Source: a virus
Direction: 5' to 3' (one strand)
IMG/VR virus record: IMGVR_UViG_3300045988_141143
Length of the DNA stretch: 64,000 bases
The notes under the pieces are model-generated. The model was not told the DNA's origin and did no database searches. It saw only the letters and a list, made by a program, of their open reading frames with translations. The translations under genes were made by a program, and so were the position numbers. Positions 3,002 through 55,627 of this stretch are shown piece by piece (the first letter of the stretch is position 1; each line of letters starts with the position of its first letter).

Positions 3002-3173
3002 TAAATTTTTCCGTGAAACATTGTCCCTAAAAAGGGGCGTTAATACACTCAGAGCAAGTCTACTGAAAGTCTACTGAAAGTTCACTGACGTTGCTCATAG
3101 TGTAAAGGTACGAAAAACGTGCGTGAAACATCGGACATAAAAAATAATTACTAACTAAAATAACAGATTTATT

Positions 3174-3758
3174 ATGAAGAAAATTTTCAGTTTTTTGCTC
3201 ATGTTAGCCATGATGCTTGCCATGGGCGCGAGTGTAGCGAGCTGTAGCAGTAGCAGTGACGATGAAGGTGGAGAAAAAAATCCTCCAGAAGAAGAGTATG
3301 TCGCAAAAGAAAGCAAGTTTTGCGATGCCTTGAGAAAATTCAAGGTATCAGGGTTTGACTACCATCAATACCAATATGTCAGTAAATTCTCGCTGCATAG
3401 CGAGGCTCGCAGTGGAATAGATGCCACCGACCGATGGGAGATTGGAATGTATATAGCAAACGACCCAGGTCTGGATAAGTGGGACGGCACATACCAGTTA
3501 GACCAACTTTGGGGTACGCTCTACGGCTTTGAAAATGGGTACGAGGTGACAAAGGCATATTTAGGTACGGAAGATACTCTCCCAGTGAAAGGAGCATGGA
3601 TAAAATTCACCTACTTGCACAAAAACGACAAATACGGCAACAAGATATACACCATAGAGCTGCATATCGACGAAATGAAGGAGAAAAACGGCGACTACGC
3701 ACGCGACATCAACATCACATATACTGGTTCGATTAGTGGCGGCATGATAGAATATTAA
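3174..3758 (+). CDS. Lipoprotein
   Basis: Signal peptide MKKIFSFLLMLAMMLAMGASVASC with lipobox VASC, followed by an SSSSDDEGG linker. Confidence 0.55.
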   Translation: MKKIFSFLLMLAMMLAMGASVASCSSSSDDEGGEKNPPEEEYVAKESKFCDALRKFKVSGFDYHQYQYVSKFSLHSEARSGIDATDRWEIGMYIANDPGLDKWDGTYQLDQLWGTLYGFENGYEVTKAYLGTEDTLPVKGAWIKFTYLHKNDKYGNKIYTIELHIDEMKEKNGDYARDINITYTGSISGGMIEY

Positions 3759-12597: not shown

Positions 12598-12691
12598 GAT
12601 GATTTTTGATTATTTATTTTTAGATGTAGCAAAGTTACCGAAAACACTTTTCTTGATAGGGACAAAGCATGACGGGAGGGTGACACTTAGA

Positions 12692-24287: not shown

Positions 24288-24839
24288 TTACGACTCAATC
24301 TCGGGAGGGTTGCCACCAGGTTTCTGCTCGCCGCCTCCAGTGGTGCCGGAATCGCCCGTGCCGGGAGTTGCTGGAGCATCCGTTGCAGCATCGCCCACTC
24401 GCTTGAACGAGCCGTGCTGTGCGAAGGCGGCGGTGAACTTCTTGGAGAAGTCGATGGCTACGCCTGCGGTGAGGTCCTTTGTGGTGAGGTCGGCGGCGGT
24501 AATCTCTCGGTTCACGTCAACGTCCTCGCCTGCTGCCTTACGTGCTTCGAGCTTCGCCTTGAGCTGGCTCTGAGTGAGCGAACCGCTGACGGTAGGACGT
24601 ACCGTCATGCCCTCGGCAGACACCTGTACCTTGGTGCCCAGTGCCAACAGAAGCGGCAGCTTTTTCTCCAACTGCGTCATCACGGCCATTACGTCCGCTG
24701 CGCCTACTGTAGAGTCCTGCGCCATGTAGTCGCAAAATTCAGGGAATGACATCTGCTGCAAGTCAACGATCTGTGCGCTTGCAACCTTTTCTTTCGTGAA
24801 ATTATTCACACGAACTGCAATTCTTGTTTTGATTGCCAT
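24288..24839 (-). CDS. HU-family (Bacteroidetes-type) DNA-binding protein
   Basis: MAIKTRIAVRVNN...AQIVDLQQMSFPEFCDYMAQDSTVGAADVMAVMTQLEKKL fits the Bacteroidales HU-like N-terminal pattern. Gly-rich acidic tail. Confidence 0.55.
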   Translation of the reverse strand: MAIKTRIAVRVNNFTKEKVASAQIVDLQQMSFPEFCDYMAQDSTVGAADVMAVMTQLEKKLPLLLALGTKVQVSAEGMTVRPTVSGSLTQSQLKAKLEARKAAGEDVDVNREITAADLTTKDLTAGVAIDFSKKFTAAFAQHGSFKRVGDAATDAPATPGTGDSGTTGGGEQKPGGNPPEIES

Positions 24840-24910
24840 AGGTTATTTTTTGTTTGGGCGTTAATACTTCCCTCTCTGTTTTTACCCGATTCCACAAAGA
24901 GGTTTTTTGC

Positions 24911-24992
24911 AATGTGCCGACACTTTTTATCGAATGTGCCGACACTTTTTGTCAAATGTGCCGACACATTGCTTTTTTCGACTACAAATGTA
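24911..24992 (-). promoter_or_regulatory. Promoter (-7 TACATTTG) plus three 16-bp dyads AATGTGCCGACAC(A/T)TT at 22-bp spacing
   Basis: Dyad starts at 24911, 24933 and 24955. GTG-N4-CAC architecture between the -7 element and the HU-like gene. Confidence 0.5.
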
Positions 24993-25024
24993 GGGAGAAA
25001 ATTTTGAGCGGTGCGGACATAAAT

Positions 25025-25802: not shown

Positions 25803-26837
25803 TTACTTTTTCCTTATCTTTTCCATTTCCTCATTCTCCACCGTCAGGCGTTCCAGGTGCTCCAGCACGAGGGAATAGCTTTGGTTGTTCACCTGGTCCT
25901 CCGTCAGTCCGGCATACTTCTGCATGGTGGCGGTGGTGGCAGTGTAAATCTCCAAGGGCGTGGTGGGCTTCTGCGACTTGAGGGGCTGCACCTTGAACAC
26001 ATGACGATAACGATGAGCGAGGGTGTGCATCACGCCCGTCCACCAAAAGAGTATCACCTGCCATGCCGTTTCGGGAAAATCGCGGAAATAGGACTGGTTC
26101 GTCTCCCACTGGTTCAACTCGTAGTGGAAGTCGTGCTTCACCATGCCCGTGTTACTGTCCACATAGTCGGTCGTGCCGTTGAAGATGGTGGCGAGAAACA
26201 TCGTCCGGGCAGAACTCACGTTCTCCATCTGCCGCTGCATCTGCTCGTCGGTGAAAGTGCCGCGCTGCTGCATCTTCAAGAGGCTGTTGCTAAGTCGGGT
26301 GTAGGTCTGCATCATGTCGGAGGCGAAGCGATACTGCGCCCACGAGAATCCGTCGAGGTCGTTGGCAGGACCGCTGAACACCTTCTTGCGTCGCCACCAC
26401 GCGCGGCGTCGCCGGATGACAGGGTAGGGAAAACGGGTGAGGAAAGCACCGTTCTCGTTATCAAGCCAGTCGAGCAAGCCTGCTCCCTGAGCGATATACT
26501 CTGCCGACTTTCGGGCGTCGGTCTTTGCCTTGGGCGTCAGCCAATAGTTGATTTGCCACAGATACAGCGGAAAGGTGCCGCTGTCCTCGTCGTCCTGCAT
26601 ACGGCAGAGGTAATACTGCTCGCTGAGGTCGAGGCGAGTGTCGGGCGCTGCCACTATCTCCAAGCCCGACAGGGCAAAGAAGATCGCCACCTTCACATTG
26701 CGCATGTCGAAGGGGTGGTATCTGTCCTGCCGTTCCACCTGCTCACGTATCACGTCGGCTATCAGCTCCAACTGTTTCGTAGAGCAGAGGTTCCAGTGGC
26801 GGGGAAGATGTAAGTCTATTTTTTTTGGATTGTTCAT
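25803..26837 (-). CDS. Hypothetical protein
   Basis: 344 aa with an RRRRAWWRRKK basic patch. No recognisable family. Confidence 0.4.
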   Translation of the reverse strand: MNNPKKIDLHLPRHWNLCSTKQLELIADVIREQVERQDRYHPFDMRNVKVAIFFALSGLEIVAAPDTRLDLSEQYYLCRMQDDEDSGTFPLYLWQINYWLTPKAKTDARKSAEYIAQGAGLLDWLDNENGAFLTRFPYPVIRRRRAWWRRKKVFSGPANDLDGFSWAQYRFASDMMQTYTRLSNSLLKMQQRGTFTDEQMQRQMENVSSARTMFLATIFNGTTDYVDSNTGMVKHDFHYELNQWETNQSYFRDFPETAWQVILFWWTGVMHTLAHRYRHVFKVQPLKSQKPTTPLEIYTATTATMQKYAGLTEDQVNNQSYSLVLEHLERLTVENEEMEKIRKK

Positions 26838-26993
26838 TTTTACAGAATCCTAAGTTTTTATCCCAAAAATGCCAAAATTGGATTATTTTAGTCCAGAAAA
26901 ATCCAAAAATGGACGAATTTAATCCCAAAAATCCAAAAGCTGGACCAGATTTATCCAGAAAAATCCAAAAATGGATGGGAAAGTTATCAAAAA

Positions 26994-30530: not shown

Positions 30531-31439
30531 TTATCGCATGGCTTCCTCAAGAGTTCTAATATAAGGTATGGCTTCGTTGCGCACAATGTCGAGAAAAAGT
30601 TGTGCTGACCGCTTCATCGGCACGTCCTTCATCCAGTGGGCATTGCTCATCAGGTCGTGCTCAAGCCCAGCGATGGGACGGACGGTAAGGGTGGGGTGAC
30701 TCTTCAGATAAAGTTTAGGCATGAAAGTAACACAATGGGTTTCTTCCACGATGGCAAGGTCTTCGTTGGGGTCGCTCACAATACATTTTACATTCAGTTT
30801 CATCAAGTCGTATCTCAGATATTGCTGGAAGGTATTGAACACCCTTTCGCCTACATCGGGCATAATCACGTTGTGCCTTAACAAATCCTCGTATGACACC
30901 TTTTCCAGTCGGGCCAAAGGATGGGTGTCCCGCATCATCGCATAGATACGGAAAGGAATACAGGGTTCTGACTTGATACCCTCATTCTTGTAGGCAGAGT
31001 TCAGAGTGAAGGCGAGGTCAATGGAGTGGCTTCTCAACAGGTGGTTCAAGTTCGCTGCCTTGGCAAACTCGGCGTTGATTCTCACATTCGGGTATCGCTC
31101 CATGAAGATAAGTGCAGCCATCCGAATGTAAGGTGCGATAAAAGAGCCTACACCTATCCTCAGCTCGCCCACAAGGCAGTTGTTGAGCGCATTGATTTGC
31201 TCCTTGCAGTCATCCGTCTGCTTCAGTATCTCCTTGGCGCGAGGCAAAAGCGCCTCGCCGCTCTCGGTGAGCATGATGCTGTGCGAGGTGCGGATAAGCA
31301 GCTTGCACCTCAGTTCATCCTCAAGAGCCTTGATGTGCTGACTGATGGCGGACTGAGTGACACAACAGCGCGTGGCTGCAATGCTGAAAGATAAAGTTTC
31401 AGCGACATATACAAATGAGCGCAAATGACGAAGTTCCAT
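30531..31439 (-). CDS. LysR-family transcriptional regulator
   Basis: N-terminal HTH MELRHLRSFVYVAETLSFSIAATRCCVTQSAISQHIKALEDEL followed by a LysR substrate-binding-like domain. Confidence 0.75.
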   Translation of the reverse strand: MELRHLRSFVYVAETLSFSIAATRCCVTQSAISQHIKALEDELRCKLLIRTSHSIMLTESGEALLPRAKEILKQTDDCKEQINALNNCLVGELRIGVGSFIAPYIRMAALIFMERYPNVRINAEFAKAANLNHLLRSHSIDLAFTLNSAYKNEGIKSEPCIPFRIYAMMRDTHPLARLEKVSYEDLLRHNVIMPDVGERVFNTFQQYLRYDLMKLNVKCIVSDPNEDLAIVEETHCVTFMPKLYLKSHPTLTVRPIAGLEHDLMSNAHWMKDVPMKRSAQLFLDIVRNEAIPYIRTLEEAMR

Positions 31440-39509: not shown

Positions 39510-40016
39510 TCATATTTTCCGAAGTTTACTCAATACTCGTCGCTGCACCTTGTCACACAGACTTTCGAGCGAGCCGTTATTGAAGATTACTGCATCGTAG
39601 AAGAACAAGGACAGAAGATTGCGCTGTTGGTCGCGGTCTAAGCGTTCCTGCGACACCCCTCGGCGCAGTCGAGTTGCTTCCCATGCCGTCACACAAATCT
39701 TGAATAGCTCGATGTCGGGGAATTTCTCGCACAAGGCTTTCAGTCCGTCCTCGTCAATGACGTAAATAGCCTTGTCCGTCACCTGGTCGATGGTGGTCCA
39801 ATACTCATAGCCGCCATACTGGGTGTATGCCAACATCTTGTCGTGCGGTACGTCGCACTTCTCTACAAAATAATGCTGCCAACCGTCAATTTCGCCTTCA
39901 CGCTTCGGACGAGTGGTATAAGAACATATCACTTTATAGCCGCCCATGTCGGACAGCATCTGAGCCACAGTGTCCTTTCCTGCACCACTCGGACCAGTAA
40001 TTGTTATCAGTTTCAT
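39510..40016 (-). CDS. Guanylate-kinase-like P-loop nucleotide kinase
   Basis: GPSGAGKDT Walker A. YTTRPKREGEIDGWQHYFV aligns to guanylate kinase HTTRQPRPGEVHGEHYFFV. Confidence 0.65.
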   Translation of the reverse strand: MKLITITGPSGAGKDTVAQMLSDMGGYKVICSYTTRPKREGEIDGWQHYFVEKCDVPHDKMLAYTQYGGYEYWTTIDQVTDKAIYVIDEDGLKALCEKFPDIELFKICVTAWEATRLRRGVSQERLDRDQQRNLLSLFFYDAVIFNNGSLESLCDKVQRRVLSKLRKI

Positions 40017-40194
40017 ATATTTTTTGTTTGAATTTTAACATTTGAGCAATCAGTAAACAATCAGTAAACAATCAGTAGACATGAAGTAAATACGCATAGG
40101 CTTCACTCTTTGCGAAAATCGGGGCTTTTTTTGCCGTTTTTCGAGTTTTTGATTTAACACTTGTGAAAAAGTGTTTTTATGTGATTACGACCCT

Positions 40195-49898: not shown

Positions 49899-50096
49899 TG
49901 TTGTGTTTGATTTTTAATGTGTGAAGTAAATGTGAAGTGTTATCCTGTTTTGATTAAGATACGATGCAAAGGTAACGAAAGGCGAAAAAACGGGTGGGAC
50001 ATATTATTTCGCCATGGGGACGGGCAGCGAGGCTTGTCCCAATCGTTTTGGGACGATTTCGTAACTTTGCCGACGTAACAAACAACATAAACAAAG

Positions 50097-50900
50097 ATGA
50101 GTCAGATAACACAAGGCACATTGGCACGCATCGACAAATGGTTGGCGCAAGGCATCAGTATCGAGACGATGTTCCCGAACCTGGAGCAGCGCTATCGTAT
50201 GCAACTCTGTGCGGAATATTACAAGAGGTGGGTGCAGAACAAGGACATTGACCCTCGTACCACCTGTCGCAACATTGCCAGACGCGACTACGAGTTGTTT
50301 ATCAACCAGGCCGCGCAGGGCAACAAGGAGGCTGTGGCGATGATTCAGGCGCTGGGCATCACGGTGGATGACGAGGGCAATGTGAGAAATCGCACCATCA
50401 CGGAACTCAACAACGACGTGGCGGTGTGCAATCACATCATCCGCTTCTTCACCACCGACGAGAGTCCGCGCCACAAAGCCATGTACCTCAATTCGGCAGA
50501 ATGGTTGATACGCACGGGCAAGCAGCAGAACAACGACCGTGCCGTGGATAAGGGTATGCAGGCCTTGGCCAACATATACAGCAACTTCATCGAGGAGAAG
50601 GACGCTACGGACGAGATGCCGGACATGAGCCGCATTGCCATCACGCAGGACGTGAGCATCGTGAAGCGCGACCGCATCAACTACACCGAGGAGGAGAAGC
50701 TTCGTCTGGCCCGCAAGTATGGTCTTACGGCAAAGGATATGCGGGATATAGCCGAAGAGGAATCCCTGCAGGCTGTAGGCAAAGAGAATGAGCCCGACTA
50801 CTTCGAGTACATGGAGAAGAAAGACGAGGAGGAGGACGTGATTAGACACGGGTACATGAAAGAAAGCGAAATGACGGATTCCGAAACGACGGATGAGTGA
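50097..50900 (+). CDS. Hypothetical acidic protein
   Basis: 267 aa. First gene of the plus-strand block that ends in the large terminase. The overlapping minus ORF 50004-51011 is Leu/His-rich and judged antisense. Confidence 0.4.
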   Translation: MSQITQGTLARIDKWLAQGISIETMFPNLEQRYRMQLCAEYYKRWVQNKDIDPRTTCRNIARRDYELFINQAAQGNKEAVAMIQALGITVDDEGNVRNRTITELNNDVAVCNHIIRFFTTDESPRHKAMYLNSAEWLIRTGKQQNNDRAVDKGMQALANIYSNFIEEKDATDEMPDMSRIAITQDVSIVKRDRINYTEEEKLRLARKYGLTAKDMRDIAEEESLQAVGKENEPDYFEYMEKKDEEEDVIRHGYMKESEMTDSETTDE

Positions 50901-50977
50901 AAACGAAACAGAAGTATCTGTTTGATGCAAACATAAGTATCTGTTTGATATAAACAATGGGCATCGTTTGAAAAACA

Positions 50978-51145
50978 ACTTGCCGACACTTTTCATCGAA
51001 TGTGCCGACACATTAAAACGAAGGTGTTAGCACTTTTTGCCAAAAGTGTTAGCACATTTTACCAAAAGTGTTAGCACATCAAAAAAACGGAGGTTCAGTT
51101 GATTTCATCAAAAGAGTCGGCTGATTTCGCCAAAAGAGTCGAACC
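50978..51145. promoter_or_regulatory. Array of seven phased 22-bp repeats (GTG-N4-CAC dyads) upstream of the plus-strand operon
   Basis: TGCCGACAC at 50981 and 51003. TGTTAGCAC at 51025, 51047 and 51069. CAAAAGAGTCG at 51111 and 51133. All at exact 22-bp phasing. Confidence 0.5.
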
Positions 51146-51193
51146 TCGGCAAATATATAGTGCATAAATGCGCTATAAAAACACTATAAAAAT

Positions 51194-52044
51194 ATGTTAA
51201 ACGAACAACTGCAGAAAAAGGTAAAACAGTCGATAAAACTCCTGCAGAGTGTGCAGAAGCGATACGACGGCGAGATAGAGATAGCCTACTCGGGCGGTAA
51301 GGACTCCGACGTGATCCTTCAGCTGGCGAAAGAGGCAGGCATCAAGTATCGGGCCATATACAAGAATACGACCATCGACCCGCCAGGCACGTTGGGGCAC
51401 GTCAGAGAAATGGGAGTGGAGATACTGCGGGCCAAGACATCCTTCTTTCATCTCGTGGCACAGAAAGGATTTCCATCTCGCTTTACTCGTTTCTGTTGTG
51501 AAGAACTGAAGGAATACAAGGTGCTCAACAAAAGTATTATCGGCGTGCGCAAGGCTGAGAGCCGGAAACGAAACGAAAGATACAACGAGCCGACAGAGTG
51601 CCGATACTTCGGAAAGAAGAAAGAGGAAAATCACGTAGAACAGATTTATCCTATTCTGGAATGGACCGATGAGGACGTGCGTGACTTCATCATAGACAGA
51701 AAGTTGAAACTCGCACCCATTTATTACAATTCGGGGGGCAAATCGACGTGTCGAAACGTCTTGGCTGTATGTGCTGTCCTCTTGCCTCAAGGCGCAAGCG
51801 CATTATCGAGTTTCAGAAATATCCCAAGATAGCAAAGGCTTATCTCCGTGCGGGGCAACGATTTATGGAAACGCATCCTGACAGCAAGGCGTGCCAGAGG
51901 TACGACAATGTTTACGAATGGTTCGTTCGCGACGTATTTTACAGCTCCAATGCAGATTGGAGCAAGGTAAGCACAGGGCTGTTCGGTAAGCCGGACTTCA
52001 AGAAATTCTTGGAGGACAAGTTCGGTATTGACTTGACATTATAA
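51194..52044 (+). CDS. PAPS-reductase-like (phosphoadenosine phosphosulfate reductase family) protein, frameshifted at a G6 run
   Basis: IAYSGGKDSDV PP-loop motif. The reading frame breaks at GGGGGG (51733-51738). The downstream frame continues with RLGCMCCPLASRRKR, the family's Cys cluster. Confidence 0.55.
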
Positions 52045-52065: not shown

Positions 52066-52395
52066 ATGGCAAAGATTATTTATTTCGGGACAGAAGGCAA
52101 CGGGCGAGCAGGACACTACCCTATGGGTATCGACAAATACCTTACCCTCGAAGAATGCAAAATATGGACTGAATGTGACAACGAGACGTGGATCAATAAC
52201 ATCTACAAGAATCCCGGTCGTCACTTGATAAAACATCACGGTGTTGTATATACCAACTATGCCGTGCCGTTCTCCGTAGATGATGAAAGGGGTGGGTCGC
52301 ATACTGAAGTATTTTGGGAAGGAATACACTCCGAGGAGGAAATGATAGAGCTTATTAAAAGCAACACTTTCTTGAAAAAACAATTCAAAATGTAA
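52066..52395 (+). CDS. Hypothetical protein
   Basis: 109 aa. Confidence 0.4.
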   Translation: MAKIIYFGTEGNGRAGHYPMGIDKYLTLEECKIWTECDNETWINNIYKNPGRHLIKHHGVVYTNYAVPFSVDDERGGSHTEVFWEGIHSEEEMIELIKSNTFLKKQFKM

Positions 52396-52401
52396 GCGAC
52401 A

Positions 52402-52683
52402 ATGATAACAATAAAAATCAAAACATGGAAGGACTGGAAGAAGGACTTCATCGATTGGGTAAAGGAGCCGCGGCGCAAGACGTGCAAGGAGTATGTGGAC
52501 TATATGGAGGCTTTACAAAAAAATACTCTCTACCAAATAATAGAGGACACTTGTGATAAATACAACAATATGCGTGAGGATCAAATCAAAGACATCACAG
52601 AAGCAGTAGAAAAATGCGTGGCTGCTTGTGCTGAAGAAGCTCGCAAGTTAATCGATGAAAGTCAGCCCGTAAAATTCTTCTAA
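52402..52683 (+). CDS. Hypothetical protein
   Basis: 93 aa. Confidence 0.35.
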   Translation: MITIKIKTWKDWKKDFIDWVKEPRRKTCKEYVDYMEALQKNTLYQIIEDTCDKYNNMREDQIKDITEAVEKCVAACAEEARKLIDESQPVKFF

Positions 52684-52724: not shown

Positions 52725-53333
52725 ATGAATAACAACATAAAAAGAAAGGACTGGGTAGGCGGCTCGGCTGCTGTATTCAAGACGTTGGGCGCGAGCAACC
52801 ATACGAATGCGGATAGACAGCGTGAGGATTACTATGCCACTGAGCCGAAGGCTACGGAATGGCTGTGCAAGCTGGAGAGGTTTGAGGGCAGGATTCTTGA
52901 GCCTTCGTGTGGCGAGGGCCACATGAGTAGAGTATTGGAGGCAGCAGGGTATGAGGTGGTGAGCCGCGATCTTGTGGATAGAGGGTACGGCGAAGTTGCC
53001 GACTTTCTCTCTATTGACAATATGGAGTGGGATGGCAATATCGTGACTAATCCACCCTACAAATACGCACAGGAATTTGTGGAGAAGGCTCTAAGCATCA
53101 TTCCCGAAGGAAAGAAGGTGGCGATGTTTCTAAAGCTGACTTTCCTCGAAGGCAAGGGTCGACGCGCTCTCTTCCGTTCTACTCCCCCCATTCGTGTTTG
53201 GGTAAGTTCATCACGACTGAAATGCGCCATGAATGGCGACTTCGAGGCTTACGGCAGCAGCGCCGCGGCTTACGCATGGTTCGTGTGGGAGAAAGGATAT
53301 AAAGGCGAGACAACTGTAAAATGGTTTAACTGA
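52725..53333 (+). CDS. Small N6-adenine DNA methyltransferase
   Basis: Motif I ILEPSCGEGHMS and motif IV IVTNPPYKY. Confidence 0.65.
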   Translation: MNNNIKRKDWVGGSAAVFKTLGASNHTNADRQREDYYATEPKATEWLCKLERFEGRILEPSCGEGHMSRVLEAAGYEVVSRDLVDRGYGEVADFLSIDNMEWDGNIVTNPPYKYAQEFVEKALSIIPEGKKVAMFLKLTFLEGKGRRALFRSTPPIRVWVSSSRLKCAMNGDFEAYGSSAAAYAWFVWEKGYKGETTVKWFN

Positions 53334-53372: not shown

Positions 53373-53603
53373 ATGAGTAACAACCGACACAAATACTTCA
53401 ACAAGGTACCGCCGTTCAAGCCGGACCCTGAACACTACACTCGCAAGCAACACTCTTGGAAAGCGAAGGAGGCCTACGAGACGGAAGATGATGCTTGGGA
53501 ATATCTCAATCAGAACCCGAAGCTGCGGGCGCAGGGCATGACGGCGTACCGATGCAGGACGTGCAACAAATGGCACATAGGACATAAGACGCACAGCGAA
53601 TAA
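53373..53603 (+). CDS. Small zinc-finger protein
   Basis: 76 aa. CRTCNKWHIGH plus upstream His residues. Immediately precedes the terminase gene. Confidence 0.4.
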   Translation: MSNNRHKYFNKVPPFKPDPEHYTRKQHSWKAKEAYETEDDAWEYLNQNPKLRAQGMTAYRCRTCNKWHIGHKTHSE

Positions 53604-53632: not shown

Positions 53633-55627
53633 ATGCAGCAAGCACACAACATATACTTAACCAAATTCCAGCAGCAGTCACTATACATGGGAGCCAAGGA
53701 TGAGCGAGTGATTGCTGCCCGCCGTGTGGGTAAGACCGACGGACTTGTGGCTCCTTACGTCTGGACGGCAAGCAACTCCATGCCTGGTATGCTCGGCGCA
53801 TGGGTGGCTGTGTCACGTCAGCAGGGCTTCGGCAAGACCATACCGAGTACGATGGCGGCCATGGAACGTATGTTCGGATTTACGCAGGGCATTCACTTCG
53901 GTTGGGGTCGCCCACCGAAGCACGCTCGCGAGAGTATCTTCAAGCCTAAGAACTACGACAACTACATTTGGTTGGCCAATGGTGCGGGATGGGTTCTTAT
54001 CTCCCTCTCGCAGACCGCCTCTGCCAACTCCTACACGTTCTCTGCGATGGTGGGCGACGAGGCGAGATTCTTTCCCTATAAGAAAGTGACCGACGAGCTG
54101 ATGCCGGCGCTTTCAGGACAGACGCACCCCTTGGGCGACATCAACTTCTCTGACCACAACCCGATGTATAAAAGTACGCGCTTTCTCTCGGATGCCTCGC
54201 TCACAGCCAAAGGTTCGTGGTTGGAGAAGGAGGAGGAGAAGTTGGATATGACGGTGGAGACGGGTCCATTCAAGGGCAAGACCTACCGATGGGTACAGGA
54301 GCAGCTGGAGGATTATGCCGACAAGGTGATACGCTACAACGACCTGTTGTATAACGCCAAGAAGACCGGTCACGGGGTGCATGTGGTGCCGAAGGAACTG
54401 CGCACGATGATACGCGCCGTGGCGCTGAAGATGATGAAACATGAGGGGCAGTTCCGCATCATGCCCAACCATGGCCAACACGTCACGAAGGGCATGGTGG
54501 AGATGGCTGTCAACTACAAACTCATTCCGCAGGAGGATGCCGAACTGATTTACGATTACGAATACCTTATCACGCCGGAAGAGGATTTCGAGATGCAGAT
54601 GTTTCTGCGGTCGAAGAAATTCTCTGAAAACTATCTGCGTGAGCTGCGCCGTGTGGCTTTCTGCGTGCGCCGTGCGTCATCGCTCGACAATGTGGATATT
54701 CTGGGTGAAGACTATATTCGCCAGATGAAACGAGATTTGCCTCCGATGACCTTCGCTATTTCAATCCTCAACATCAAAGTAAAGAAGTCAAACGACGGAT
54801 TTTACTCCAACCTCGACATCGATCATGTTCACGGATATATCCCCGACGAGATAGACCCCTTATCGTCTGCCAAATTTTCCACGCAAAAGGTATCGGGCAT
54901 CATCGGTGGCAAGAAAGTCACGAGCGAGAGTTATCAGCCCGACTTCAAGGAGTTGGGCGAGCGCAACGACTCGCGCCAGGACTCCGACTGCATCAACTCC
55001 CTTCCTTTATATATAGCCCTCGATTACAATGCCAATATCAATACGTTGGTGGTCGGGCAGATGTACGAGCGCGACGGCATGGAATGTCTGAACGTCATCA
55101 AGAGTTTCTATGTAAAGAACGAGCGCAAGTTGCGTGAAGTGATAGCCGATTTTTCCGACTATTACGCACCGAAGCGAGCCATCAACCGTGACGTGACGTA
55201 TTTCTATGATGCTACGGCAAAGCAGGGAGCATCCTATGCTTCGTCGGACGAGCGATTCTATATGACCGTGATTGCTGAATTGGAGAAGCACGGCTGGAAC
55301 GTGACGGCCATTGATATGGGCGCACCAGAGAAGCACGAGGTGAAGCACAAGATTATCAACGACGGACTGGCTCACCTCTCCTACCCTGCCATCCGCATTA
55401 ACCAGGTGAACAATCCCGACCTTATCATCGCCATGCAGCTGTGTGAGGTGCAGATTTCGTACAAGGGATTCCACAAAGACAAGAGTCAGGAGAAGAAGCC
55501 CGAAAGCGAGGACACGCTGCCCCTGCAGCAACGTACCGACTTCACGGATGCCTTCGATACGCTGTACTTAGGTTGCAAGTTCTTCCGTGTCGGTGGCGGT
55601 TGGTTTGTGCTGCCGAGTGGAAGATAG
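53633..55627 (+). CDS. Terminase large subunit
   Basis: Walker A AARRVGKTD and Walker B MVGDEARF in the N-terminal ATPase domain. 664 aa with a C-terminal nuclease-sized domain. Confidence 0.65.
   Translation: MQQAHNIYLTKFQQQSLYMGAKDERVIAARRVGKTDGLVAPYVWTASNSMPGMLGAWVAVSRQQGFGKTIPSTMAAMERMFGFTQGIHFGWGRPPKHARESIFKPKNYDNYIWLANGAGWVLISLSQTASANSYTFSAMVGDEARFFPYKKVTDELMPALSGQTHPLGDINFSDHNPMYKSTRFLSDASLTAKGSWLEKEEEKLDMTVETGPFKGKTYRWVQEQLEDYADKVIRYNDLLYNAKKTGHGVHVVPKELRTMIRAVALKMMKHEGQFRIMPNHGQHVTKGMVEMAVNYKLIPQEDAELIYDYEYLITPEEDFEMQMFLRSKKFSENYLRELRRVAFCVRRASSLDNVDILGEDYIRQMKRDLPPMTFAISILNIKVKKSNDGFYSNLDIDHVHGYIPDEIDPLSSAKFSTQKVSGIIGGKKVTSESYQPDFKELGERNDSRQDSDCINSLPLYIALDYNANINTLVVGQMYERDGMECLNVIKSFYVKNERKLREVIADFSDYYAPKRAINRDVTYFYDATAKQGASYASSDERFYMTVIAELEKHGWNVTAIDMGAPEKHEVKHKIINDGLAHLSYPAIRINQVNNPDLIIAMQLCEVQISYKGFHKDKSQEKKPESEDTLPLQQRTDFTDAFDTLYLGCKFFRVGGGWFVLPSGR

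Follow-up and report, generated by a model that had tools for sequence, protein, structure and literature searches.

Repeat arrays in a Bacteroidota-type phage as candidate operators for its own HU-HIG family protein

TF1 of Bacillus phage SPO1 is a phage-encoded HU-family protein with preferred sites, and the ribbon-helix-helix (RHH) regulators MetJ, Arc/Mnt, omega of pSM19035 and ParG act on tandem sub-sites. Here we compare these and related systems with two repeat arrays in a 64,000-nucleotide stretch (the window) of the IMG/VR virus record IMGVR_UViG_3300045988_141143, a tailed phage of Bacteroidota type. The large array, at 50977-51148, is a composite of three unit classes; the smaller one lies in the transcribed leader of a gene for a protein of the HU-HIG family. 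The reading we favour, with some reserve, is that the repeats are operators for this phage-encoded protein, which would autoregulate its own gene and gate read-through at the large array.

On this reading the protein would resemble TF1 as an HU-superfamily homodimer acting on its own phage's DNA, at preferred sites near promoters and with an effect on transcription, the binding being predicted from sequence. TF1's preference, in contrast, needs hydroxymethyluracil DNA and flexible sites of ~37 bp, not tandem 16-bp palindromes at 22 bp, and we know of no swappable recognition patch or operator/protein co-variation in TF1. The protein considered here also comes from another clade, HU-HIG of the Bacteroidota, and carries an N-terminal extension as well as a glycine-rich tail. 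IHF and Hbb provide a second likeness, namely HU-fold dimers at defined sites with A/T-rich flanks in an architectural role, including next to packaging genes (IHF at lambda cosB/attP). However, IHF is a heterodimer with an asymmetric consensus and mostly indirect readout through arms and body, whereas the sites here are dyad-symmetric and tandem, and the specificity-linked residues precede the HU core.

RHH regulators are alike in that small dimers cooperatively bind short-repeat arrays in several promoters, autoregulate and read DNA by an N-terminal segment; an N-terminal beta-ribbon in the HU-like protein would be speculation. Pfam nevertheless assigns the protein to HU-HIG and not to RHH, and the period is 22 bp as against 7-11 bp. 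Phage repressor arrays (lambda and 186 CI, P1 C1) and lambdoid immunity swapping likewise involve phased palindromic operators at more than one locus, with operator and recognition residues changing together among relatives in an accessory, mosaic module. In these systems, unlike here, the binder is a helix-turn-helix (HTH) repressor; the present operators also lie downstream of a promoter or between cistrons, and one array holds three specificity classes. Iteron/Rep systems likewise combine 22-bp tandem repeats with a further, smaller group at the presumed binder gene's promoter, but a Rep-family gene is missing here, most relatives lack the array and several unit families stand together. The present case differs from all these in its clade, HU-HIG, in a recognition-linked patch outside the HU core and in one array of several specificities.

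Phased units and their co-variation with HU residues 11-23

Direct reading and repeat finders resolve the large array into eight 16-bp quasi-palindromic units, two of class C, three of D and three of E (Table 1). All follow one plan: a 10-bp core, in which two 3-nt arms enclose a 4-nt centre, stands between an A-rich and a T-rich flank, and a short spacer comes after. The cores are GTG-CCGA-CAC (C), GTG-TTAG-CAC (D) and GAG-TCGG-CTG (E). The steps between units are 22, 22, 22, 22, 24, 22 and 22 bp; C1 to D3 are strictly in register, and the 24-bp step from D3 to E1 offsets the E block by +2 bp. Repeat finders called 22-bp arrays at 50981-51026, 51024-51079 and 51100-51141. An earlier note on the window had described seven elements at exact 22-bp phasing; the repeats and their phasing are borne out, but the units number eight and the register is broken once. 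Its three motif families are present, although the 'CAAAAGAGTCG' family turns out to be the shared unit in variant form, with GAG/CTG arms (AAAGAGTCGGCTGATT compared with the reverse-strand C unit AAAGTGTCGGCACATT). It had also placed the first family three times at 22 bp between the -7 element and the HU-like gene, and three exact C units, AATGTGCCGACAC, are indeed found there at 24911, 24933 and 24955, the first core beginning 17 nt 3′ of the -7 box.

The exact C 13-mer has four copies in the 64 kb, all at the large array or the HU-gene leader, while D and E units are confined to the large array. The observed number of near-matches to the units was reached in 0 of 100 shuffles. The units are helically phased, share a conserved core and recur beyond chance. 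Unit, spacer (TTTCATCAAAAG-like) and 22-bp phasing are common to both sites. An A/T-rich stretch (51150-51193) follows the large array, and two copies of CTATAAAAA precede the ATG.

HU loci were taken from IMG/VR, metagenomes and contigs chosen by protein, 39 in total. Promoter, leader and protein are conserved among them, and the position between the -7 box and the conserved leader is filled by an array of one of at least eight core types (C, D, D″, G1, G2, E, E′ or K), usually in three copies at 22 bp. With peptide classes listed by HU residues 11, 13, 14, (19) and 23, the pairs are as follows: C, GTG-TCGG-CAC with V11, N13, F14, Q23; D, GTG-TTAG-CAC with V, H, L, L19, Q; D″, (G/T)TG-TTAG-CAA with V, H, L, V19, R23; G1, GGGC-TA-GCCC with E, H, L, N; G2, GGGG-ATAG-CCCC with D, H, L, N; K, GAG-TTAG-CTG with D/E, H, L, A; E, GAG-TCGG-CTG with S, S, I, T/S/A/Q; and E′, GGT-TCGA-ACC with S, S, I, N. 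Core type and version of residues 11-23 corresponded without exception in the 39 loci. As a partial rule, H13-L14 pairs with a TAG-containing centre (five types, both arm contexts) and N13-F14 or S13-I14 with a TCG(G/A) centre, and positions 11 and 23 track the arms.

The D core of the window is the leader array of V11-N-H-L-T-Q-E-K-L variants of the HU-like protein (loci L090, L108-L116, L120, L122, L126 and L159), and its E block is homologous over ~50 nt to the leader array of S11-N-S-I variants (L092, L121-L125, L154, L155 and L158). Each of C, D and E in the window array is the cognate leader array of some HU variant.

In an entropy profile of 121 homologs, variability is confined to positions 5-8, 11, 13, 14, 16, 19, 20 and 23, those from 11 to 23 being hypervariable, and residues 24-149 are nearly invariant. 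Because the HU core begins near residue 26 (a profile aligns residues 26-71 to the HU chain of PDB 2NDP, E = 0.034), the variable patch falls within the N-terminal extension that is usual in the clade.

We argue that this co-variation exceeds hitch-hiking of neighbouring DNA, for three reasons. First, the leader between array and codons assorts differently, leader I occurring with C or D, leader II with D or G2 and leader III with C or G1. Second, the peptide is held within a type through synonymous codon changes, for example AAT AAT TTC versus AAC AAC TTC, which places the constraint on the protein and speaks against pairing of RNA or of DNA. Third, a prospective prediction held: for eight homologs picked solely for a new peptide, the contigs gave the expected core or a new one (K, D″). 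The putative operators co-vary with the putative recognition residues of their putative cognate protein.

Centres may also be flipped inside otherwise identical arrays, as CCGA/TCGG in L007, a near-identical relative whose C-block centre reads TCGG, and as GATAGC/GCTATC in L095 and L128. Orientation is therefore neutral, which would fit a two-fold symmetric dimer on DNA and not a loop-specific RNA element.

The operator reading and its rivals

The HU-like protein matches Pfam PF18291 at 34.7 bits (cut-off 26.2) and scores 28.6 against TIGR01201, under that family's cut-off of 68.6; precomputed PF18291/PF14848 matches exist for 120 homologs. Its profile score, glycine-rich C-terminal motif (GTGDSGTTGGGEQKPGGN) and Bacteroidota distribution place it in the HU-HIG clade, a large, fast-evolving Bacteroidota expansion without assigned function. 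The literature on HU-HIG/TIGR01201 function and on Prevotella phage operators yielded only the 2017 paper that defines the clade and a preprint mentioning the Pfam family. The HU cassette was found in ~11 of more than 146 contigs that carry the 267-amino-acid protein gene preceding the large array. It is thus accessory and, having its own promoter and terminator hairpin, looks moron-like; no match was found in reference bacterial genomes.

Distribution ties the two sites together. Among 115 distinct relatives with enough sequence after the 267-amino-acid protein gene, the large-array position is without such units in 97 and holds HU-type units (one to more than eight) in 11 and a different repeat, type J, in 7; the array is thus missing in 84%. 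Where an intact HU gene and the second site are both visible, however, an array including the genome's own type is present in all 3-4 genomes, against a background of ~10% (11/115), a strong association, though in few genomes. In the window (HU intact, C) the large array is C2 D3 E3; in contig 134987 (intact, C) it is C2 D′2 D1 E3; in contig 171405 (intact, E′) it comprises C1, one TTTAGCCC unit and three E′-like units; and in the sample 3300014943 pair (intact, D) it is C1 D3 plus E/K units. With HU deleted, contigs 108496 and 104445 have collapsed single copies and contig 102495 none. The deletions in L096/L097 (108496, 104445) and L147/L148 (102495, 111964) are internal to the HU gene, removing codons ~1-102 or nearly the whole; promoter, 2-3 D units and leader are intact.

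Because units, spacers and phasing are the same and the large array co-occurs with an intact HU cassette, the most likely explanation is that both sites are served by one DNA-binding factor acting as phased dimers, so that the shared transcription factor proposed in the earlier note is upheld at this strength. With the HU-like protein as that factor, each 16-bp unit would bind one homodimer, with residues 11-23 of the N-terminal extension reading the core. Units two helical turns apart would bring neighbouring dimers onto one face of the DNA, where they could form a cooperative, bent nucleoprotein block. The three units just 3′ of the HU -7 box would then mediate autorepression, by occlusion or as a roadblock, and the eight-unit C/D/E composite would control read-through, either as a roadblock that depends on the protein or as an architectural gate.

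The proposed gate sits in a co-directional unit, between the 267-amino-acid protein gene, with its promoter at 50062, and the genes from PAPS reductase to terminase (PAPS, phosphoadenosine phosphosulfate). It is suggested by the position of the array inside this unit without a plus-strand box: a motif scan of 50900-51193 found no plus-strand TAnnTTTG. Upstream of the array and the PAPS-reductase-to-TerL genes, the plus strand has a single box of Bacteroidota type, at 50062-50069, ~0.9 kb from the array; the box that directly adjoins the array, at 51150, is on the minus strand. The co-variation suggests that the HU-like protein is sequence-specific, although its clade is thought not to be.

Several points weigh against the HU-like protein as binder. 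At 22-bp spacing, classical IHF/TF1 footprints, which span ~35 bp, would run into one another. Of the three blocks in the window, the one that matches its own HU type, C, is the weakest (two units, one degenerate), and neither the window nor a 91-kb relative holds a cognate protein for the D and E units; no second HU paralog for them was found in the window. At least two long contigs (151591 and 138321) carry an array without a detectable HU of the family, and four contigs with a deleted HU gene retain intact D arrays. In the window and L108, the closest C/D pair, array, leader and codons 12-19 could be one exchanged tract of ~200 nt, so linkage contributes to some pairs. The AF2 model has a pLDDT of 38, its order of secondary structure being compatible with an HU fold but unreliable, and phmmer against PDB gave no match. 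The paper defining the clade argues that its members are unlikely to act as transcription factors with sequence specificity (Burroughs et al. 2017, PMC5499826).

The presence of three unit classes beside a C-class protein only might reflect cross-talk with relatives that co-infect, a relaxed specificity, further binders or a history of recombination. A bolder proposal, which we think improbable, is that HU-HIG proteins of Prevotella-type gut phages are programmable sequence-specific binders whose N-terminal code (11, 13, 14, 19, 23) sets the core. The C+D+E array would then be a multi-specificity landing pad through which HU variants of co-infecting relatives control or sabotage the packaging-side operon, and the specificity classes would behave like immunity or incompatibility groups in inter-phage conflict.

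Another phage or host factor might bind the units instead, for example one of three XRE HTH proteins (41-361, 367-711 and 2194-2487, two with C-terminal zinc ribbons), HU variation being linked by its ~150-nt proximity. The possible exchange tract in the window/L108 pair would suit this, as would the arrays that persist with HU deleted or without detectable HU. We nevertheless consider it unlikely. Leader types assort independently of array type and the peptide does not; the peptide is conserved despite synonymous changes; the prospective test succeeded; and the protein is otherwise invariant, so the variable patch is under type-specific selection. The earlier note had named the CxxC-tailed XRE proteins (41-361 and 2194-2487) as candidates, but nothing links them to the repeats, nor do any data tie an XRE allele to a unit type, whereas HU residues 11-23 co-vary with the core. 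Both have a C-terminal CPHCG...zinc-ribbon-like tail, and the protein at 367-711 is without one. A LysR regulator (30531-31439, minus strand), full-length with HTH_1 and LysR_substrate domains, was rejected as binder because it is accessory, being present only in the two closest relatives, L098 and L099.

Less probable still is that the elements act as RNA, either as hairpins in the HU leader and the inter-cistronic transcript or as a ~60-nt leftward small RNA that would start from the box at 51150-51157 and end at the E hairpin and U7. In its favour, transcription at the HU locus covers the arrays, hairpins of 6-8 bp can form from C, D and G units, and folding is more stable than in shuffles (z = -3.8 and -6.4), although such low energies follow trivially from repeated palindromes. 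On the minus strand, TAtaTTTG is followed by an CGGAGGTTC...GAACCTCCG stem, the E block forming a long hairpin, and then T7 (51081-51087). E and K units, however, are not self-complementary, stem extension is broken by the AAAG...CATT retained in units 2 and 3, and centre orientation, which is not constant within an array or from strand to strand, would give differing loop sequences. No Rfam match was found, and the minus-strand box is not kept in all array-bearing relatives: it is retained in L023/L083, imperfect in L013/L002 and missing in L078 and L054.

We see very little likelihood that the large array is a pac or cosB-like site bound by the small terminase, perhaps with the HU-like protein as a bending cofactor like IHF at lambda cosB. 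The earlier note had offered a pac site as its alternative, with the array right before the packaging genes; it in fact lies directly 5′ of the PAPS-reductase-like gene, with TerL 2.5 kb downstream. This neighbourhood, the conserved preceding 267-amino-acid protein that could be TerS, and the phased repeats adjoining an A/T-rich stretch are compatible with packaging. Yet the array is accessory. It is lacking in most relatives, among them several with TerL 93-96% identical and the same 267-amino-acid protein (L008, L015-17, L019, L024-28, L035 and L050); L008 has lost the array together with most of the PAPS-reductase gene, and in L054/L063 one unit is left. This loss argues against an essential pac site or origin, and a pac site would leave the array in the HU leader unaccounted for.

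The 267-amino-acid protein was rejected as TerS or binder: it has no Pfam, PHROG, NCBIfam or PADLOC match, none of its more than 340 close homologs is named, and with an AF2 pLDDT of 62 its Foldseek search against PDB gave nothing below E = 0.5. Contig ends near the region were rejected as packaging termini, since they lie inside paralogous methyltransferase genes and have the appearance of assembly breaks.

Iterons of a replication origin, or the partition centromere also raised in the earlier note, with the HU-gene copy serving autoregulation, are just as hard to credit. Iterons classically consist of 22-bp tandem repeats, such repeats are widespread in unrelated genomes, and the array is followed by an A/T-rich stretch, but the neighbouring genes include no initiator, ParA or ParB family, most close relatives are without the array, GC skew has no clear extremum beyond gene orientation, and several unit families share one array.

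Genomic setting and implications

Table 1. Positions of the repeat units, promoters and genes at the two sites of the window
Feature	Position	Strand	Sequence or description
C1	50977-50992		AACTTGCCGACACTTT; left arm degenerate, TTG
C2	50999-51014		AATGTGCCGACACATT; 22 bp from C1
C block	50977-51014		core as in HU-gene leader array
D1	51021-51036		AAGGTGTTAGCACTTT
D2	51043-51058		
D3	51065-51080		
D block	51021-51080		three units AA(G/A)GTGTTAGCAC(T/A)T(T/C) at 51021, 51043, 51065; exact 22-bp steps; register shared with C block
E1	51089-51104		GGAGGTTCAGTTGATT; 24 bp after D3
E2	51111-51126		AAAGAGTCGGCTGATT
E3	51133-51148		AAAGAGTCGAACCTCG
E block	51089-51148		inverted repeat on both sides, CGGAGGTTC (51088-51096) / GAACCTCGG (51141-51149)
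Minus-strand -7-like box	51150-51157	-	TAtaTTTG; would read leftward into E, D, C
Module A	50906-50951		2 x 23 bp, AAAC-A-G/T-AAGTATCTGTTTGAT; dyad TGTTTG-ATG-CAAACA
Module B	50952-50969		quasi-palindrome AAACAATGGGCATCGTTT
HU-HIG family gene	24288-24839	-	183 aa; N-terminal extension ~residues 1-24; glycine-rich C-terminal tail
HU-gene operator array (candidate)	24911-24970		three C units, 24911-24926, 24933-24948, 24955-24970; 22 bp apart, in transcribed leader
HU-gene promoter	24985-25019	-	-7 box TAcaTTTG (reverse complement of 24985-24992); TGTCC upstream (GGACA on + strand, 25015-25019)
Promoter of 267-aa protein gene	50035-50069	+	TGTCC 50035-50039; -7 box TAacTTTG 50062-50069
267-aa protein gene	50097-50900	+	conserved; stop codon precedes array
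PAPS-reductase-like gene	51194-51832	+	
Small open reading frames	52066-52395, 52402-52683	+	
DNA methyltransferase	52725-53333	+	
Zinc-finger protein	53373-53603	+	76 aa, CxxC; directly 5′ of TerL
TerL	53633-55627	+	weak PHROG 2 match; tblastn to Microcystis, Polaribacter, Porphyromonas phage TerL

Homologs of the window's proteins are named Prevotella sp. in their sources, and the contigs with the 267-amino-acid protein gene, all from IMG/VR, measure 50-110 kb. Genes for a 1983-amino-acid tape measure, a protease and tail fibres are on the minus strand. TAnnTTTG is strongly enriched between genes, with 19 of 53 matches in the intergenic 12% of the window. TGTCC(C/G) lies ~24-27 nt upstream of 6 of the 19 intergenic boxes, at 12630(-), 24985(-), 27589(-), 35643(-), 49967(-) and 50062(+), an example being ATGTCCGCACC before the HU gene. 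The two motifs together may define a phage-specific promoter class that takes in the HU gene and the 267-amino-acid protein gene. The leader between array and HU start codon (24840-24910) contains an inverted repeat, CCTCTTTGTGGAATCGGGTAAAAACAGAGAGG, which is kept in most leader types and may be a separate RNA element.

In many relatives the zinc-finger gene directly follows the 267-amino-acid protein gene, and the array, the PAPS-reductase gene, the two small open reading frames and the methyltransferase gene therefore look like insertions between two conserved neighbours. The PAPS-reductase-like protein has weak PADLOC matches to BrxP and DndC; its gene shifts among relatives, upstream or downstream of the 267-amino-acid protein gene, and two types only about 30% identical alternate.

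Modules A and B (50906-50976) probably lie outside the HU system, because they are found in L014, L259 and L262 without HU-type units. Module A (AAGTATC flanked by dyad arms) has 1 to 4 copies across L014, L078, L259 and L262; its arms covary in L014 (CTCCTTGACGCGAGGAG), and its minus strand holds a TAtgTTTG box (50928).

Type J arrays, at the equivalent position, have 2-4 copies of a non-palindromic 22-bp unit, CCGATTGGATTGCGTTCGCCGT, 5′ of a divergent PAPS-reductase gene; the unit is carried by L020, L022, L033, L044, L046, L049, L074, L132 and L133. A second locus for the J-type array (GGATTGCGTTCG) was sought and rejected, with one locus per contig and no partner site. The D-array pattern in bacterial genomes and in L143/L144 (IMG/VR) was judged coincidental, 22-bp tandem repeats being frequent. 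The 10-mer GTGTTAGCAC also occurs in unrelated 22-bp tandem repeats of L143/L144 and of L271-L275 from bacterial genomes; one case stands 5′ of an RHH-like gene, and others are on contigs of Prevotella, Clostridium, Planctomycetota, Sulfitobacter and Aminicenantes. In relatives, a 21-bp array close to HU proved to be a coding heptad-like repeat. Elsewhere in the window, ~four copies of a 31-bp repeat (TTTATCCAGAAAAATCCAAAAATGGACCAA-like) lie at 26857-26975, 5′ of the minus-strand gene 25803-26837. Intergenic 11-bp tandem repeats stand at 40047-40090, just 5′ of gene 39510-40016(-) (TTTACTGATTG x3-4 on the minus strand), and at 3056-3088, just 5′ of gene 3174-3758(+) (AAGTCCACTGA x3).

The arrays constitute a natural experiment, in which at least eight operator types are each accompanied by a distinct 13-residue patch on an otherwise invariant protein, and they offer a readily testable candidate recognition rule, for example H13-L14 for TTAG centres as against N13-F14 or S13-I14 for TCGG. 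Should the HU-like protein prove not to bind, the arrays would represent a clear case of concerted operator swapping by another factor. If binding is confirmed, they would reveal a new mode of sequence recognition in the HU/IHF superfamily, provide a function for a moron-like cassette of human-gut phages, in a lineage that is abundant and measures roughly 100 kb, and explain the mosaic regulatory region 5′ of the DNA-modification and packaging genes.

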